Of a stretch of 38,680 bases of DNA, positions 20,308-26,810 are shown one piece after another. Position numbers and translations under genes: made by a program. This DNA is from an uncultured Patescibacteria group bacterium (GTDB taxonomy: Bacteria; Patescibacteriota; Patescibacteriia; Veblenbacterales; UBA10138): assembly GCA_937929825.1 (NCBI GenBank), contig CALFUV010000018.1, positions 1 to 38,680 of the forward strand, written 5' to 3'. Below the pieces are notes generated by a model. That model ran no database searches. It was not told the DNA's origin and saw only the letters and a program-made list of their open reading frames with translations. How positions within the stretch are numbered: the stretch's first letter is position 1; each line of letters opens with the position of its first letter.

Positions 20308-21342
20308 TTATTGGTTTACTGAAGAAATTATCTTTTTTAATTCTACCATAGCTAGTCTGCCTAAATCTCGTCGTACCGGAGAAATATGTTCCAATAGTTT
20401 AGTATAGTGAACCCATTTATAATAAGAGGCTTCTCTGGGATTTTGATTAATTTTTGGTCTGATTTCATTAACGCTAGCTACAGCTAAACTTTGTTCTTGG
20501 CCTATATAACCGTCTGGGTTAAGTCTTTTTAGCTGTCGCAAAAAATCTTTTGACCAACGATATTTATAAATTCTTTCTTTAATAATCAGCAGTTTAATAT
20601 TTTTTAAACCCACTTCTTCCAATACTTCACGTCTAGCGGCCTGAGCTAGGCTTTCGCCTTTTTCAATACCTCCTTGAGGAAATTGCCAATCCTTGGGATT
20701 ATGTTCCGAACTTCTAATAAGTAAAATCTCATTTTTGGGGTTTATTATACAAATAGCGATATTTGGTCGAAAACGACTTTTGTGGGCTGTAAATCGCAAA
20801 TTTAAAGCCATTAGACGCTTATAAATAGGCCCCTGAGGCGTTAAAGTACTTTGCATTAAACTAATTGTTTGCACAGGTATTTTGTATTTAAATGGTTTTA
20901 GTTGAGGCAAATCATTAGCTGACTGTGGTTGTTTAAGGCGTACCAAAGTTATATGTGCTGGTCTGGCAATAGCTGATAATTTCATTGATTTAATTTGAGC
21001 TGATAAATTTTGTTGTAACCTAGTAAATTCTGACGAAGACTTTATAGTTAAGGCGATAATTTTAGGTTGACGTTTTGGTATAAATTCAAATTGATGAGTT
21101 TCAAGATTAAAAGTTTGCCAATTAGTTAATACTTTAGTTAACATTTTTTTAAAATCATTTAAGATATAGGTTGGGATTTCACCAATAAAAACAACTGTCA
21201 AATGCCAATTATTCTCCTCTACCCATTTACCATTGAATTTATTTTTGAGTTGAAAAATAAGATTTGACAATTTTTTTCTTAATGAAATAGGCAGTTCAAT
21301 AGCAATAAAAATTCTCATGATTTCGATATTTAATTTTATCAT
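20308..21342 (-). CDS. Fusion protein: N-terminal 2H phosphoesterase (LigT/ThpR-like 2',5' RNA ligase / 2',3'-cyclic phosphodiesterase) plus C-terminal Nudix hydrolase. Probable true start is the internal Met at 21318 (MRIFIAIELP)
   Basis: Two H-x-T-x motifs (HLTVVF and HITLVR) define the 2H fold. A perfect Nudix box GGIEKGESLAQAARREVLEEVGL lies in the C-terminal half. Confidence 0.7.
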   Translation of the reverse strand: MIKLNIEIMRIFIAIELPISLRKKLSNLIFQLKNKFNGKWVEENNWHLTVVFIGEIPTYILNDFKKMLTKVLTNWQTFNLETHQFEFIPKRQPKIIALTIKSSSEFTRLQQNLSAQIKSMKLSAIARPAHITLVRLKQPQSANDLPQLKPFKYKIPVQTISLMQSTLTPQGPIYKRLMALNLRFTAHKSRFRPNIAICIINPKNEILLIRSSEHNPKDWQFPQGGIEKGESLAQAARREVLEEVGLKNIKLLIIKERIYKYRWSKDFLRQLKRLNPDGYIGQEQSLAVASVNEIRPKINQNPREASYYKWVHYTKLLEHISPVRRDLGRLAMVELKKIISSVNQ

Positions 21343-21383: not shown

Positions 21384-22778
21384 ATGAAACAGCTTTTGAG
21401 ACATTTATTTTTTATTAGTTTTTTAAGCCTTTTTAGTTTATCATCTTTACTGGCACCTGTTATTTCTCAGGCACAGGAGCAGTTTGATTATAATTATATA
21501 ATTTCTGATCGTGATTTAACTGATGCCAATTCTTGGAATTTAGATCAAATTCAAGCTTTTCTTATTGCTAAAAAAAGCGTTTTAGCCAATTATTTTGATT
21601 CAATTACCGGTTTGCGTGCCTCGCAAATAATTTATCAATCAGCACAAGATTTTCAAATAAACCCAAAATTTTTAATAGCTCTAATACAAAAAGAACAAAG
21701 TTTGGTCGAACATCCTTCGCCACAACCATCACAGTTTGACTGGGCAACAGGTTATGCAGTCTGCGATGGTTGTAGCACCAATGATCCGGCTTTAGAAAAA
21801 TTTAAAGGTTTTTATAACCAAGTGTATAACGCTGCCAAACGTATCCGAACTAGTTATTTATTTGATTTAGAAACTAGTGGTATGACTTTATCTGGTTTTG
21901 GTCCGGGTATAACTAAATTAGTTAATGGTATACCGGTAAAACCAGTTAATAATGCTACAGCCGCGGTTTATACTTATACACCACATCTGCACGGAAATAG
22001 ATTATTGGCTCAGATTTGGCGCAGGTTTTTTTCACAGTCTTATCCTGATGGTTCTTTAGTGAAAGTTGATAATGAACCTGATATTTGGTTGATTGAAAAT
22101 GGTTTGCGAAGAAGATTTGTAAACCAGTCTGTTTACTTATCTCGTTATAGTGATTTTTCTCGGGTATTGAATGTTAGCCGGCAGGATTTACTTAAATATT
22201 CTGAAGGTCGGGAAATTCGTTTTGCTAATTATTCTTATTTACGAACACCACGCGGTACAGTTTATTTATTAGTAGATGATGTTTTACGGGGTTTTGCTTC
22301 AGCTGAAGCTTTGCGAAAATTAGGTGTTAATCCAGAGGAAATAATCGATGTGCAAGCTGAGGATATAATGGAATATGAAGAAGGAAAACCTATTACTACC
22401 GCCAGCTTATTCCCTTTAGGTGCATTATTACAGGATAAAAACAGCGGCGGTGTTTACTGGATTAGAGATGGAATAAAGTATCCGATTTGGTCACGTGAAA
22501 TAATGACAGCCAATTTTCCCAACCGTAAGATTATAACAGTTACTAGCACAGAACTTGAAAAGTTTGCTACTGGCCAACCGGTTACCTTTCGTGACGGTGA
22601 ATTAGTTAAATCTTCTGATGAATCTACAGTTTACCTAATATCTAATGGTCAGCGTCGTCCGTTTGTATCAGCTGAAGATTTTGAAAATTTAGGTTTTTCT
22701 TGGCAGAACATAAGGGTTACCAGTTCAACTGTTTTGGCTTTGCATGAAATAGGTGAACCTATAATGATTAATTTTTAA
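21384..22778 (+). CDS. Secreted protein with cleavable signal peptide, N-terminal lysozyme-like/transglycosylase-like region (…LIALIQKEQSLV…) and four C-terminal repeats of about 50 aa (vYLI.NG.RRpF.s.e.f..lG…)
   Basis: Signal peptide MKQLLRHLFFISFLSLFSLSSLLAPVISQA. Repeat copies begin near IWLIENGLRRRF, VYLLVDDVLRGF, VYWIRDGIKYPI and VYLISNGQRRPF. Confidence 0.5.
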   Translation: MKQLLRHLFFISFLSLFSLSSLLAPVISQAQEQFDYNYIISDRDLTDANSWNLDQIQAFLIAKKSVLANYFDSITGLRASQIIYQSAQDFQINPKFLIALIQKEQSLVEHPSPQPSQFDWATGYAVCDGCSTNDPALEKFKGFYNQVYNAAKRIRTSYLFDLETSGMTLSGFGPGITKLVNGIPVKPVNNATAAVYTYTPHLHGNRLLAQIWRRFFSQSYPDGSLVKVDNEPDIWLIENGLRRRFVNQSVYLSRYSDFSRVLNVSRQDLLKYSEGREIRFANYSYLRTPRGTVYLLVDDVLRGFASAEALRKLGVNPEEIIDVQAEDIMEYEEGKPITTASLFPLGALLQDKNSGGVYWIRDGIKYPIWSREIMTANFPNRKIITVTSTELEKFATGQPVTFRDGELVKSSDESTVYLISNGQRRPFVSAEDFENLGFSWQNIRVTSSTVLALHEIGEPIMINF

Positions 22779-23561: not shown

Positions 23562-25397
23562 ATGGACAAAAATATCGTGCAAATAGCTATACTTAGAAAA
23601 TTACCCCGTTCTAAGGGAGTGTTTGATTATAAGACACCATTAGATTTAAAGGTTAAACTCGGTGATTTGGTTATGGCACCATTTAAAAGTGGTAATTATC
23701 CGGGTATTGTAGTTGGTATAGGTGCCAGTCCAAAAGCGCCTCAGAATCTACGTAGTATTAATTGTGTATTGAGTTCAGATTTTTTAAGAAAAGAAGAATT
23801 ATTTATGATGAGTTGGTTGGCCAAAAATAGCGGTGTGAGTCTAGGATTGGCGGGTAGTATGTTTGTACCATTTTTACCGACCAGTAAAAAGCCTTATAAT
23901 AATCGCCCTCAGCCTCTTGTGGTTCCAAAAAAGCTACAATCTCAGCCGATAATTGTAATACCAAAATCTTTGGAACACAAAAAAAAACTGGCATTGCAAC
24001 TGATTAATCAGGTTTTATTGCGGAGACAACAAATTTTGATATTGGTGCCGGAAGTATTTTATATACAATGGTGGCGAGATTTTATTAGTTCAACAAAAAA
24101 GGTGCAAGAGTTTTATAGTGGTCAGCAGTCAACTATAGCTCGTTTGACTTGGCTTGAGACTAGGGCCGGACAGGCAGATGTTATAATTGGTACTCGTGCA
24201 GCTTTGTGGCTACAATATCATAATCTAGGCGGTATTATAATTGATCAGGGTGAAAACGAAAATCATGTACAGTCAAACCAGAATCCCAGATATGATGCTG
24301 TTGAAGCGGCTCAGCAATTAGCAGGTGTTTGGCATAGTTCATTGGCTATATTTTCGTTTGCTCCGCGTTTGGAGCAGTGGCAAGCTAGTAATAATAAAAA
24401 ATTTCTCTGGCGTGAATTTATCTTGCCGATCAATAGGTTTAAAATAGTGAGCACTTTTGGCTTAAAAGTTCAACAAGGTTTGATAACGGATGAACTTCAA
24501 CAATTAGTGGAAAAAAGTTTGACTAATAAAGGACGGGTTTTATTGTACCTTAATAAGCGGGGAGCTCGCGGTTTTATATGCCAAGATTGTGGTTATCAGG
24601 CTCGATGTTCGCGTTGCTCCAGAACTATGATGGAATCTGATCATGATAGGTTAATGATTTGTTATCATTGTCAGGAAAAACAAAATATACCTCTCCCCTG
24701 CCCTAGTTGTCATGGTAATAGTTTTAGATATACCACCCGTGGTTTGGATGATCTTTATAAATCTGTTAATAATTTATGGCCCGAGGCTAAGGCTATTTTA
24801 TTGCAAGATAGTTTTGATTACTCAACTATTAATTTAGTTAAGAAAGCTAGATTAATAGTTGGCACGAGTACAGCTTGGAGAGTGTTGTATGGCCAAAATT
24901 TAGAATTAGCAGCTTTAGTCCGTGCAGATAATGAAATTAGCTTACCTGAATTTAGATCAGTAGAGAGAACTTGGCAATTATTGAGAAATTTATTAGTTAG
25001 CGCCAAAACAGTTGTTTGCCAAACAAGTTTGCCTAAACATCAACTATGGCAATATATTACTAGTTATAAAACGAACACTTTTTATCAAGCTGAATTAACA
25101 CAAAGAAAACTTTATCATTATCCGCCCGTAGTTAAAATATTACGACTGACTATAGAATCTTTAAATAATGAAACAGCAAAAAAAGAGGCTTTGGACCTTT
25201 TTTCCATAGTATCTAAAAATTTGCCCACTTCAGCCGAAGTTATTGGTCCATACCCAGATTACTATCAACGTCGTGGAAAAAAATGGCGTTGGCATATTTT
25301 ACTGAAATATCCTAATAATTGGCCGTTTGAGCAATTATGGTCACAGTTGCCTGATAATGTTATTATTGATCCACAGCCATATTTTATATTAAGCTAA
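23562..25397 (+). CDS. priA: PriA-like primosomal protein N' homologue with degenerate helicase motifs (no Walker A, and Walker B DEEH replaced by DQGE), but an intact N-terminal 3'-DNA-binding domain and Cys-rich zinc-binding region
   Basis: Collinear similarity to PriA. N-terminal segment VQIAILRKLPRSKGVFDYKTP...GDLVMAPFKSGNYPGIVVGI. Middle segment QILILVPEVFYIQWW...ADVIIGTRAALW...LGGIIIDQGE. Zinc region CQDCGYQARCSRCSRTMM...CYHCQEKQNIPLPCPSCHG. There is no GxGK[ST] anywhere in the 611 aa. Confidence 0.6.
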   Translation: MDKNIVQIAILRKLPRSKGVFDYKTPLDLKVKLGDLVMAPFKSGNYPGIVVGIGASPKAPQNLRSINCVLSSDFLRKEELFMMSWLAKNSGVSLGLAGSMFVPFLPTSKKPYNNRPQPLVVPKKLQSQPIIVIPKSLEHKKKLALQLINQVLLRRQQILILVPEVFYIQWWRDFISSTKKVQEFYSGQQSTIARLTWLETRAGQADVIIGTRAALWLQYHNLGGIIIDQGENENHVQSNQNPRYDAVEAAQQLAGVWHSSLAIFSFAPRLEQWQASNNKKFLWREFILPINRFKIVSTFGLKVQQGLITDELQQLVEKSLTNKGRVLLYLNKRGARGFICQDCGYQARCSRCSRTMMESDHDRLMICYHCQEKQNIPLPCPSCHGNSFRYTTRGLDDLYKSVNNLWPEAKAILLQDSFDYSTINLVKKARLIVGTSTAWRVLYGQNLELAALVRADNEISLPEFRSVERTWQLLRNLLVSAKTVVCQTSLPKHQLWQYITSYKTNTFYQAELTQRKLYHYPPVVKILRLTIESLNNETAKKEALDLFSIVSKNLPTSAEVIGPYPDYYQRRGKKWRWHILLKYPNNWPFEQLWSQLPDNVIIDPQPYFILS

Positions 25398-25405
25398 GAC
25401 CGTTT

Positions 25406-25888
25406 ATGCTTCCTCTTATAATTGCACCTAATAAAATTTTACGCACCGTCGTTAAATCTATTCAGTTGCCAGTAACAAATGATATAAAAAAATTGGCAGT
25501 TGAAATGTCTGAAACTATGTTTTATTATCACGGAATAGGCTTAGCTGGTCCTCAAGTTAACCGTGATGCTAGAATTATTGTTATTACTACTGCTGACGGG
25601 GTAAGTACTTATTTAAATCCGGAAATTATCAAAACTTCTTGGCGTCAGGTTGATATGGAAGAGGGGTGTTTATCTATCCCGGGTGTTTTTGGGCAAGTCC
25701 GCCGACCTCGACGTGTGTTAGCAAGTTTTTATACTTTAACCGGTGAACATCGCAAAGAATGGCTGGATAATATGCTGGCTAGAGTTTATCAGCATGAAGT
25801 TGATCACCTTAATGGTATTTTATTTACAGATAAAGCTTGGCGGATAAATCAAGGCCAAGATTTATTAGCGAAGTATGGTTTGGTCTGA
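25406..25888 (+). CDS. def: Peptide deformylase
   Basis: Three PDF motifs: GLAGPQV, EGCLSIPG and QHEVDHLNG. Confidence 0.9.
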   Translation: MLPLIIAPNKILRTVVKSIQLPVTNDIKKLAVEMSETMFYYHGIGLAGPQVNRDARIIVITTADGVSTYLNPEIIKTSWRQVDMEEGCLSIPGVFGQVRRPRRVLASFYTLTGEHRKEWLDNMLARVYQHEVDHLNGILFTDKAWRINQGQDLLAKYGLV

Positions 25889-26810
25889 AAAATTTGTTTT
25901 TTTTGGTTCACATGATTTTTCCAGGCGTATTTTAGCTGGTTTATTAGCCGGTGGCCAACAGCCGGCTTTAGTTATATCAACTATTAGCAAACCAAGTGGT
26001 AGAAAAAAAATAATTGAGCCCACACCGGTTGAAGTATTAGCAAAAAATGCTCAATTACCTTTTGTATCAATAAAAAGCTTCAAACAAAGTTATCCGCAGG
26101 AATTAACCCAAATACAGGCTAATTTTGCGATCTTAGCTGCTTTTAATCGTCTTTTGCCTAAGTCCTTATTACAGCTGTTTCCATTGGGAGTTATTAATGT
26201 TCATCCCTCATTATTACCACTTTATCGTGGACCATCCCCTATTCAGCAGGCTATTCTTGACGAGCAAGCTGTTACCGGCGTAACTTTAATAATTTTAGAT
26301 GAAGAAATGGATCATGGACCTATCATAGCTCAGGAACAATTGAGTCTTAATTATGACGATGCGCTAACTTTATTTATTCGGACAGCTGACTTAGCAGTTA
26401 ATATGCTTAAACTAATAGTACCTGATTATTTAGCAGGTAAAATTAAACCTCAAATCCAAGATCACAGCCGAGCTACTTATACCAGTTTAATTACTAAAAA
26501 ATCTGGTCAAGCTGATTTTTCTTGGCCAGCTAAAAAACTTGATAATATGCGTCGGGCTTATACTCCTTGGCCGGGGCTATGGACTACTTGGCAGGGCTCC
26601 ATTTTAAAATTTATTAAAACAACTGTTAGCACAGAAAAAAATATTAAACCGGGACAAGTTATTTGGTTAAATAATAGTTTACTGATTGGTTGTGGGCAAA
26701 ATACTGCTTTACAAATAATAGAATTGCAACAAGCTGGTGGCCGTCCTCAAACAGCCAAAGATTTTATAAACGGTCACCGCTCTTTTTTAAGAACAAGTTT
26801 ACCAAGTTAA
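25875..26810 (+). CDS. fmt: Methionyl-tRNA formyltransferase
   Basis: Overlaps def by 14 nt (classic def-fmt operon). NVHPSLLPLYRG formyltransferase motif. C-terminal Fmt domain. Confidence 0.85.
   Translation: MVWSEKFVFFGSHDFSRRILAGLLAGGQQPALVISTISKPSGRKKIIEPTPVEVLAKNAQLPFVSIKSFKQSYPQELTQIQANFAILAAFNRLLPKSLLQLFPLGVINVHPSLLPLYRGPSPIQQAILDEQAVTGVTLIILDEEMDHGPIIAQEQLSLNYDDALTLFIRTADLAVNMLKLIVPDYLAGKIKPQIQDHSRATYTSLITKKSGQADFSWPAKKLDNMRRAYTPWPGLWTTWQGSILKFIKTTVSTEKNIKPGQVIWLNNSLLIGCGQNTALQIIELQQAGGRPQTAKDFINGHRSFLRTSLPS

Follow-up and report, generated by a model that had tools for sequence, protein, structure and literature searches.

A Patescibacterial PriA ortholog without ATPase motifs: a probable pseudohelicase of replication restart

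The 38,680-bp contig CALFUV010000018.1 from an uncultured Patescibacteria group bacterium (Veblenbacterales), which was analyzed over its complete length and is referred to below as the window, carries a gene for a 611-residue protein that is the positional and sequence ortholog of priA (encoding primosomal protein N'). In this protein and its relatives the constraint on ATP chemistry has vanished, while the constraint on DNA recognition and architecture persists. As judged from its sequence, the protein offers no site that would be able to bind and hydrolyze ATP in the canonical manner, and it is predicted to lack ATPase activity. The PriA of this cell has thus probably turned into an ATPase-dead pseudohelicase, i.e., a protein that would recognize abandoned replication forks and recruit the replicative helicase.

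An earlier note on this DNA, made from the letters of the sequence and without database searches, had suggested a PriA homolog that keeps DNA and zinc binding, is probably dead as an ATPase and helicase, and may serve only as a scaffold in restart. The alignments and the structure model described here support this predicted role. They add the deletion of motif VI, the degeneration of motifs III and V, the absence of the winged-helix (WH) domain and the sharing of these traits across an entire clade.

Results

Orthology and fold

The protein scores above the cutoff of the NCBIfam model for priA (TIGR00595; 250.2 bits, cutoff 230.35), and phmmer matched it to PriA chains only among the PDB sequences (E ~1e-47, aligned residues 140−587). 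The homology along the full length that the earlier note had claimed is borne out by a profile−profile alignment with hhalign, in which a profile of 17 close relatives was compared to one of 19 motif-intact PriAs, including that of Escherichia (E.) coli (probability 100%, E 1e-121, 609 aligned columns). In Pfam, only PriA_3primeBD (PF17764, residues 17−103) and PriA_C (PF18074, residues 522−598) are recognized. Intact PriAs also carry the DEAD/ResIII and Helicase_C domains, to which (PF00270, PF00271 and PF04851) no Pfam match was found in this protein even at E ≤ 1, and no newly gained domain was detected by Pfam in the 611 residues.

A model obtained with AlphaFold2 from an alignment of 25 sequences is confident along the whole chain (mean predicted local distance difference test, pLDDT, 87.8; predicted template-modeling score, pTM, 0.87). 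The predicted architecture comprises two RecA-like lobes with a Cys4-Cys4 zinc region inserted in lobe 2. The best matches of the model in the PDB are the PriA structures 8FAK, 6DCR, 6DGD and 4NL4, with template-modeling (TM) scores of 0.79−0.81; the next structural family is Mfd with a TM score below 0.4. Structure prediction, proposed in the earlier note as a check, thus yields a confident PriA fold.

The gene is found at the position expected for priA. Of 68 related loci, 46 show the order priA-def-fmt, among them loci of the motif-less as well as the motif-intact form; because this locus is common to the two forms, they are positional orthologs.

Loss of the motor motifs

A regular-expression scan of the 611 residues gave no match to GK[ST], as the earlier note had stated, and none to [AG]xxxxGK[ST] or G[KR][STN]. 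A displaced or frameshifted P-loop was considered and rejected: the profile alignment reveals no displaced P-loop, and a search of all forward (+ strand) frames across the gene and 300 nt of flank on either side found none, which excludes a hidden, frameshifted one. The register of motifs I and II was determined by phmmer against solved PriA chains, by MAFFT together with E. coli PriA and by the hhalign profile alignment, and all three agree. PKSLEHKKK stands in register with the Walker A motif (GxGKT) and IIDQGE opposite VIDEEH, so that both losses read by eye in the earlier note are correct. In the model, the former Walker A site consists of a strand (residues 130−133), a three-residue turn and a helix from residue 137; because the helix starts three residues after the strand, there is no room for a glycine-rich loop.

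Of the Walker B residues, the Asp is kept (D228) and neither the catalytic Glu nor the His remains. Among 187 motif-less sequences, the E321 column holds mainly D (46), Q (32), E (28) and N (21), and the H323 column E (82) and H (43). The T358 column of motif III, T in 48 of 48 intact PriAs, is A in 97, S in 32 and T in 25 of the motif-less sequences. In motif V the Q/K-G is gone. Opposite the arginine-finger segment QVAGRAGR of motif VI, a gap is seen in every member of the clade with MAFFT as well as hhalign; at R584 and R587 most motif-less sequences have a gap, and 48 of 48 intact ones have R. In all, T231, E321, R584 and R587 are invariant in the 48 intact PriAs and lost in the 187.

In E. 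coli PriA, the WH domain spans residues 109−181 (PMC5778457). Here, it is absent: the site is occupied by a linker of ~23 residues, the clade leaves ~100 alignment columns unfilled, the relatives have a median of 14 residues aligned to E. coli 105−200, and the model has no secondary structure at residues 99−129. The replacement of the WH domain by a linker fits the close structural match to 6DCR, an engineered WH-deletion protein. Motif-intact Patescibacterial PriAs lack the domain as well, i.e., it is not universal to the PriA family.

Retained DNA-binding, zinc and C-terminal elements

The regions which the earlier note had recognized as retained (the 3'-DNA-binding region, the lobe-1 segments LVPEV and IGTRAALW, and the Cys4-Cys4 region) are all present and correspond to the 3'-DNA-binding domain (3'BD, PF17764), motifs Ia and Ib and four CxxC pairs, respectively. 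The 3'-end pocket of E. coli PriA is formed by D17, Y18 and K61 (PMC5778457), with which D22, Y23 and R64 are in register; the corresponding columns of the 187 motif-less sequences hold D/S/T in 183, Y in 186 and K/R in 176 cases. In lobe 1, P163 of motif Ia and G210, T211 and R212 of motif Ib are invariant or nearly so in the clade. The aromatic-rich loop (ARL), located at the fork junction in E. coli PriA, is likewise retained, with Q237, Q240, N241, P242 and R243 invariant in the 17-sequence clade and yKQ.dnPRY as the consensus of the motif-less form. Motif IV is kept (LYLNKRG), and a PEFR..E segment is conserved in the motif-less clade. All eight cysteines of the Cys-rich region (CRR) are invariant among the 17 sequences, and the median number of cysteines is eight in the motif-less and intact groups alike. 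In the C-terminal domain (CTD), P521, P522, P563 and Y564 do not vary within the clade.

Selection pattern

The closest homolog is 44% identical, which means that synonymous sites are saturated, and column conservation was used in place of the ratio of nonsynonymous to synonymous substitution rates (dN/dS). Mean column conservation was compared between the 187 motif-less and the 48 intact PriAs. Motif I has a value of 0.94 in the intact and 0.20, i.e., background level, in the motif-less group, a difference that over so many sequences is not a chance feature. The corresponding pairs (intact, motif-less) are 0.88 and 0.53 for motif II, 0.83 and 0.50 for motif III, 0.78 and 0.37 for motif V, and 0.79 and 0.18 for motif VI. 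For motifs Ia, Ib and IV they are 0.85 and 0.47, 0.83 and 0.70, and 0.76 and 0.60, respectively. The 3'BD pocket (0.58 and 0.60), the ARL (0.68 and 0.60), the CRR (0.53 and 0.46) and the YPP segment of the CTD (0.66 and 0.64) complete the comparison; together with motifs Ib and IV, these elements are nearly as well conserved as in the intact group. There are 50 invariant columns among 17 homologs that are only 33−41% identical.

Distribution and evolution of the loss

The earlier note had proposed that orthologs in related genomes be inspected for the same loss, and these genomes do share it. A search of 5.8 billion proteins gave 18 relatives, 33−41% identical and mostly 605−639 residues long (two are partial), some of them named Veblenbacteria or Patescibacteria; none of the 18 has a helicase domain in Pfam. 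When 1.84 billion cluster representatives (50% identity) were searched with a profile, 10,071 hits below 1e-30 were obtained, ordinary PriAs included. Among the best 150 of these, Walker A is missing in 135, with motifs I, II and VI all lost in 120 and DEEH alone kept in 15, while 15 retain Walker A, 13 of them together with the other two motifs. Full-length open reading frames of like length with the same pattern of lost and kept motifs were found in more than 180 homologs, representing more than 180 lineages.

The 68 loci mentioned above were obtained in a scan of GTDB species representatives. Because the pattern used was the loop-motif peptide of the clade itself, the motif-less share of 53 of 63 Patescibacteria-type loci is biased upward. 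The motif-less form occurs in Veblen-, Kerfeld-, Falkow-, Kuenen- and Moranibacteria and in Parcubacteria/Paceibacterota, and motif-intact, equally short WH-less PriAs in Doudna- and Torokbacteria and in some bins labeled Saccharibacteria. In a number of cases (L003, L007, L009, L015, L017, L021, L024 and others) the record title reads “uncultured Gammaproteobacteria bacterium” despite gene strings of the Patescibacteria type. These titles of metagenome-assembled genomes (TPA_asm/binchicken submissions) look like placeholders and are unfit for taxonomy.

In a tree calculated by neighbor-joining only, for which every motif column was masked, 188 of the 190 leaves of one clade are sequences without Walker A, and the WH-less, motif-intact Patescibacterial PriAs branch just outside this clade. 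Parsimony requires about 5 changes over 240 sequences. The loss in Patescibacteria is a single ancient event, kept through a very large radiation. Separate losses are seen in two Zixibacteria, in one Omnitrophota protein and in a few unplaced sequences. The Zixibacterial PriAs (L058, 5020−7536, and L069, 5059−7497; 838 and 812 residues) have kept the WH domain, the P-loop site reads FGDRTSEKTK and FGGTSLKRSE, respectively, and the arginines of motif VI are missing; in the Omnitrophota protein (P0020, 617 residues), motifs I, II and VI are all gone. Five relatives have strict P-loop matches, but these lie at scattered positions outside the register; GIINKGKT in L069 falls on the noncatalytic “..GK.ALV” position before motif Ia, which is present in intact PriAs, too. 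In four Patescibacterial loci (L036, L047, L053 and L067), a conserved HS[LM][GEQ]SE[RK]H[DAE] stands in the place of motif I and motif VI is lost, while DEEH/DEEQ and the GTQM of motif V are still present. This intermediate state suggests a stepwise erosion in which ATP binding was lost first.

Features and genomic neighborhood

The features of the gene and the two genes that follow it are listed in Table 1. The stop codon of the upstream gene lies 3 nt before the start of the priA-like reading frame, and def begins 8 nt after its end.

Table 1. Positions of the priA-like gene, of its retained and degenerate elements and of the genes directly downstream (nucleotide numbering of the window)
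Feature	Position	Strand	Basis or remark
priA-like gene, putative PriA pseudohelicase (611 aa)	23562..25397	+	Whole open reading frame including stop codon; ATG start, uninterrupted
3'BD (aa 1−105)	23562..23876	+	Pfam PF17764, E 7e-12; D22/Y23 at nt 23625−23630, also R64
WH site, short unstructured linker (aa 106−128)	23877..23945	+	Alignment, model
Former motif I/Walker A, PKSLEHKKK (aa 134−142) for GVTGSGKTE	23961..23987	+	phmmer, MAFFT, hhalign
Motifs Ia (LVPEVFYI, aa 161−168) and Ib (IGTRAALW, aa 209−216), lobe 1	24042..24209	+	Retained; taken as DNA-contacting
Former motif II/Walker B, IIDQGE (aa 226−231) for VIDEEH	24237..24254	+	phmmer, MAFFT, hhalign
ARL (motif IIa), NENHVQSNQNPRYD (aa 232−245)	24255..24296	+	Retained
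Degenerate motif III, IFSFAPRLE (aa 263−271) for LGSATPALE	24348..24374	+	Column conservation
CRR, 4 x CxxC	24579..24710	+	C340, 343, 349, 352, 367, 370, 380, 383; two predicted Zn sites
Degenerate motif V, IVGTSTAWRVLYGQ (aa 432−445) for E. coli LIGTQMLAKGHHFP	24855..24896	+	Column conservation; Q/K-G gone
Former motif VI, LLRNLLVSAK (aa 473−482), QVAGRAGR arginine-finger segment deleted	24978..25007	+	Alignment gap
CTD (aa 521−611), YPP and GPYPDY..W.W signatures	25122..25394	+	Pfam PF18074, E 1e-8
def and fmt (overlapping)	25406..25888 and 25875..26810	+	Pfam Pep_deformylase and Formyl_trans_N/C; directly 3' of the priA-like gene

The contig carries housekeeping genes of the Patescibacteria type (aminoacyl-tRNA synthetases, mreBC, PBP2, greA and ddl) as well as genes for a tyrosine recombinase, a RuBisCO-like large subunit and FtsX with an ABC ATPase. 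No second priA and no gene for any other helicase was found within the window, and two priA loci in one genome were not seen among the 68 loci found with the clade's loop pattern.

The open reading frame immediately upstream of the priA-like gene (22782−23558, + strand) encodes 258 residues and has no Pfam or PDB sequence match; AmmeMemoRadiSam system protein B is a subthreshold hit (E 0.021). A homolog is found immediately upstream of priA in 34 of the 68 related loci, in two of them next to a motif-intact priA, and the reading frame belongs to a conserved gene string, up2-up1-priA-def-fmt. A role of its product as a specific compensator of PriA was considered and rejected, since the gene is also found near motif-intact priA (L022 and L040) and has only the weak AmmeMemoRadiSam-B-like match.

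Several other genes of the window have uncommon products. The 464-residue protein encoded at 21384−22778 (+) matches no family and carries a signal-like sequence at its N terminus; it is conserved, at 39−67% identity, in 28 of the related loci, i.e., better than PriA itself. The gene at 26807−28336 (−) encodes a 509-residue multipass membrane protein with only a faint cellulose-synthase/chitin-synthase-like match, which is 77−84% identical to its counterparts in L002, L003 and L005, where the neighbors are 40−60% identical. A RuBisCO large-subunit homolog (28790−30250, −; 486 residues) is encoded amid housekeeping genes and presumably resembles the form II/III-type enzymes reported from bacteria of the Candidate Phyla Radiation (CPR). 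At 20308−21342 (−), an N-terminal LigT/2'-5' RNA ligase-like phosphoesterase is fused to a C-terminal NUDIX hydrolase, and in the 829-residue product of 15077−17566 (+) the sole recognizable part is an SPFH/Band 7 domain (residues 512−680). The GC skew is positive from position 1 to ~26 kb and negative thereafter. The turn, at about 26000−28000, coincides with the switch of the genes from the + to the − strand at the convergent pair of fmt and 26807−28336; it may reflect gene orientation only or a change in replication direction.

Discussion

Comparison with known PriA proteins

A motor-dead class of PriA is known experimentally only from Deinococcus (D.) radiodurans, where it is described in one paper. 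The PriA of this organism has no ATPase or unwinding activity and binds single-stranded DNA (ssDNA), forks and DnaB (Lopper, Boone and Morrow 2015, PMC4504706). In Deinococcus-Thermus, motifs I and II match the consensus poorly and GKT is changed to GRT (PMC4504706). The Patescibacterial protein resembles it as a PriA ortholog with nonconsensus Walker A and B motifs, and we propose from the sequence that it would fall into the same functional class. Unlike in Deinococcus, the replacement takes in the entire glycine-rich loop, motifs III and V have degenerated, and both motif VI and the WH domain are missing. This loss, which extends over a very large radiation, is also independent of that in Deinococcus, because WH-less, motif-intact Patescibacterial PriAs branch just outside the motif-less clade. 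As far as the sequences tell, it is a second, independent and much more radical loss of the PriA motor. No publication on such a loss in Patescibacteria or the CPR was found in a literature search.

With the E. coli and Klebsiella pneumoniae PriAs (4NL4, 6DGD and 8FAK) the protein shares the order of 3'BD, lobe 1, lobe 2 with Cys4-Cys4 and CTD at a TM score of ~0.8. The 3'-end pocket, the ARL, LNRRG, the Cys ligands and YPP/GP.P are also shared, and both belong to the priA family above the NCBIfam cutoff. It differs from these enzymes in sequence (20−25% identity) and in the absence of the WH domain and the ATPase motifs. The CRR residues at which PriB docks in E. coli are partly kept, i.e., D438 is present while S481, T482 and H483 are changed. 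The E. coli WH deletion 6DCR is the second-best structural match and the one with the highest query-normalized TM score (TMq 0.81, TMt 0.77). That protein is engineered and has an intact ATPase, whereas in Patescibacteria the WH-less state is natural and general, motif-intact PriAs included. The actinobacterial PriA models of NCBIfam (PRK14873) are matched with 78 bits or less at cutoffs above 800, and this weak match means that the protein is not a member of the actinobacterial subfamily. Mycobacterial and streptomycete PriAs are flagged in UniProt/HAMAP notes as having no detectable helicase domain and, if so, may be a further natural PriA without a helicase. No paper supporting or refuting a helicase-less actinobacterial PriA was found.

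Proposed function

The functional model for the Patescibacterial protein would be, by analogy, the E. coli K230R/A/D (priA300) mutants, which are motor-dead and assemble the primosome. The K230R and K230A proteins are without ATPase, helicase and translocase activity and near wild type in vivo, where they support restart (PMC5778457), and they load DnaB in vitro via the PriA−PriB route, a purpose for which they are in routine use (PMC5778457, PMC10175261). Those mutants are, unlike the natural protein, single engineered changes in an intact motor and depend on PriB and DnaT. In the Patescibacterial protein the ATP site as a whole is gone, as is the WH domain, and its lineage is not known to have PriB or DnaT. 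An electron cryomicroscopy structure of PriA/PriB bound to a fork shows contacts to all three arms, with the lagging strand already single-stranded; the 3'BD grips the nascent 3' end, the loop of lobe 1 is found at the junction, and a pore formed by CRR, lobe 2 and CTD surrounds the lagging-strand ssDNA (PMC10175261).

The elements retained in the Patescibacterial protein are those used in this ATP-independent mode, which is why a static, structure-specific fork adaptor is proposed. The protein would bind an abandoned fork or a D-loop by capturing the nascent leading strand's 3' end in the D22/Y23/R64 pocket. The conserved QNPRY loop would wedge at the fork junction, and lobe 2, the CRR and the CTD would hold the ssDNA of the lagging-strand template between them. 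Bound in this way, PriA could remain static and act as a platform for the recruitment of DnaB, either directly or via an adaptor. It would neither translocate nor peel off the nascent lagging strand, and its action would be limited to forks and D-loops with a lagging-strand template that is single-stranded beforehand. That the protein binds forks and recruits DnaB is proposed on the grounds of the conserved DNA-binding elements and the E. coli and Deinococcus precedents, and such behavior is what priA300 and the Deinococcus PriA would lead a specialist to expect.

Several observations weigh against this reading. The old Walker-lysine site holds K140, and its column is basic in 127 of the 187 motif-less sequences (K in 72 and R in 55); the Walker B Asp (D228) persists in 140 of them. 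The old site could conceivably still bind a nucleotide weakly. The residual K/R and Asp are most simply explained as a vestigial contact, i.e., as a salt bridge with a structural role and not as a site for nucleotides; the glycine-rich loop is missing, and so are T231, E321 and the two arginine fingers. As to the step of DnaB recruitment, neither PriB, DnaT, DnaD, DciA nor DnaB was found encoded within the window. Furthermore, the PriA helicase is needed in E. coli, if only for the PriA−PriC route and some special reactions (PMC5778457), and another helicase may have to compensate for its loss.

Alternative explanations

The residual Lys and Asp at the old site could also mean that the protein is still a motor, which hydrolyzes ATP or another NTP at a noncanonical or displaced site; a second, weaker nucleotide site has been proposed in E. 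coli PriA and was never located (PMC5778457). We regard this as highly improbable. No glycine-rich loop is present in the protein or encoded in the other forward frames, the modeled helix leaves no space for a P-loop after strand 1, and neither the catalytic Glu nor the Thr of motif III nor the arginine fingers have been kept, the segment of motif VI being missing altogether. In E. coli PriA, the exchange of K for R is by itself sufficient to abolish the ATPase, and with the motif I columns at background over 187 sequences no alternative binding motif has become fixed. Still less can be said for a decaying pseudogene or an artefact of assembly or frameshift. The contig is metagenome-assembled and Pfam finds no helicase domain in the protein, but the 611-residue reading frame is uninterrupted and tightly spaced to its neighbors, the same pattern recurs in the more than 180 homologs, the fold is confident along the chain, and 50 residues are invariant at 33−41% identity. 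The conservation pattern rules out a pseudogene or artefact, and this explanation is effectively refuted.

A different kind of alternative accepts the dead motor and places the PriA body outside restart, in some other DNA transaction or as a general adaptor for DnaB loading, including at the origin. With the WH domain and all motor motifs lost, the helicase-dependent reactions of E. coli PriA are impossible, the known primosome partners are not encoded nearby in the window, and whether PriA acts alone in PriA-only bacteria is an open question. Nevertheless, the features that recognize forks and 3' ends (the D/Y/K pocket, the ARL wedge, the CRR and the CTD) are exactly the conserved ones, the gene stays at the ancestral priA-def-fmt position like its intact orthologs, and no gain of a new domain is seen in Pfam. 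Such a re-purposing is unlikely, and the preferred reading remains that of a pseudohelicase which probably still acts in restart as a fork-recognizing platform.

Implications

If this reading holds, nature would repeatedly confirm the priA300 result, i.e., that recognition of the fork and recruitment of the helicase, not unwinding, is the core job of PriA. The motif-less proteins pass TIGR00595 and are for this reason named “replication restart helicase PriA” by annotation pipelines, which would be an over-annotation. The protein would also correct a textbook-level generalization on PriA and offer a natural minimal PriA, compact (about 610 residues), WH-less and ATP-independent, for structural and biochemical studies of the hand-over of DnaB in the absence of PriB and DnaT. 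For the CPR, the question is raised of who, if anyone, clears the nascent lagging strand at stalled forks.

In a wider and more doubtful extrapolation, a large part of Patescibacteria (Veblen-, Kerfeld-, Falkow-, Kuenen- and Moranibacteria, Parcubacteria and Paceibacterota) may restart replication without a PriA motor. A minimal PriA of four domains (3'BD, two dead RecA lobes, CRR and CTD, with no WH domain) would there be a stand-alone, structure-specific adaptor to which DnaB is recruited directly, and in such tiny genomes maybe the sole adaptor for DnaB loading, beyond restart as well. If true, this protein would be the natural minimal PriA, and the view that the PriA helicase is conserved everywhere except in Deinococcus would be overturned.

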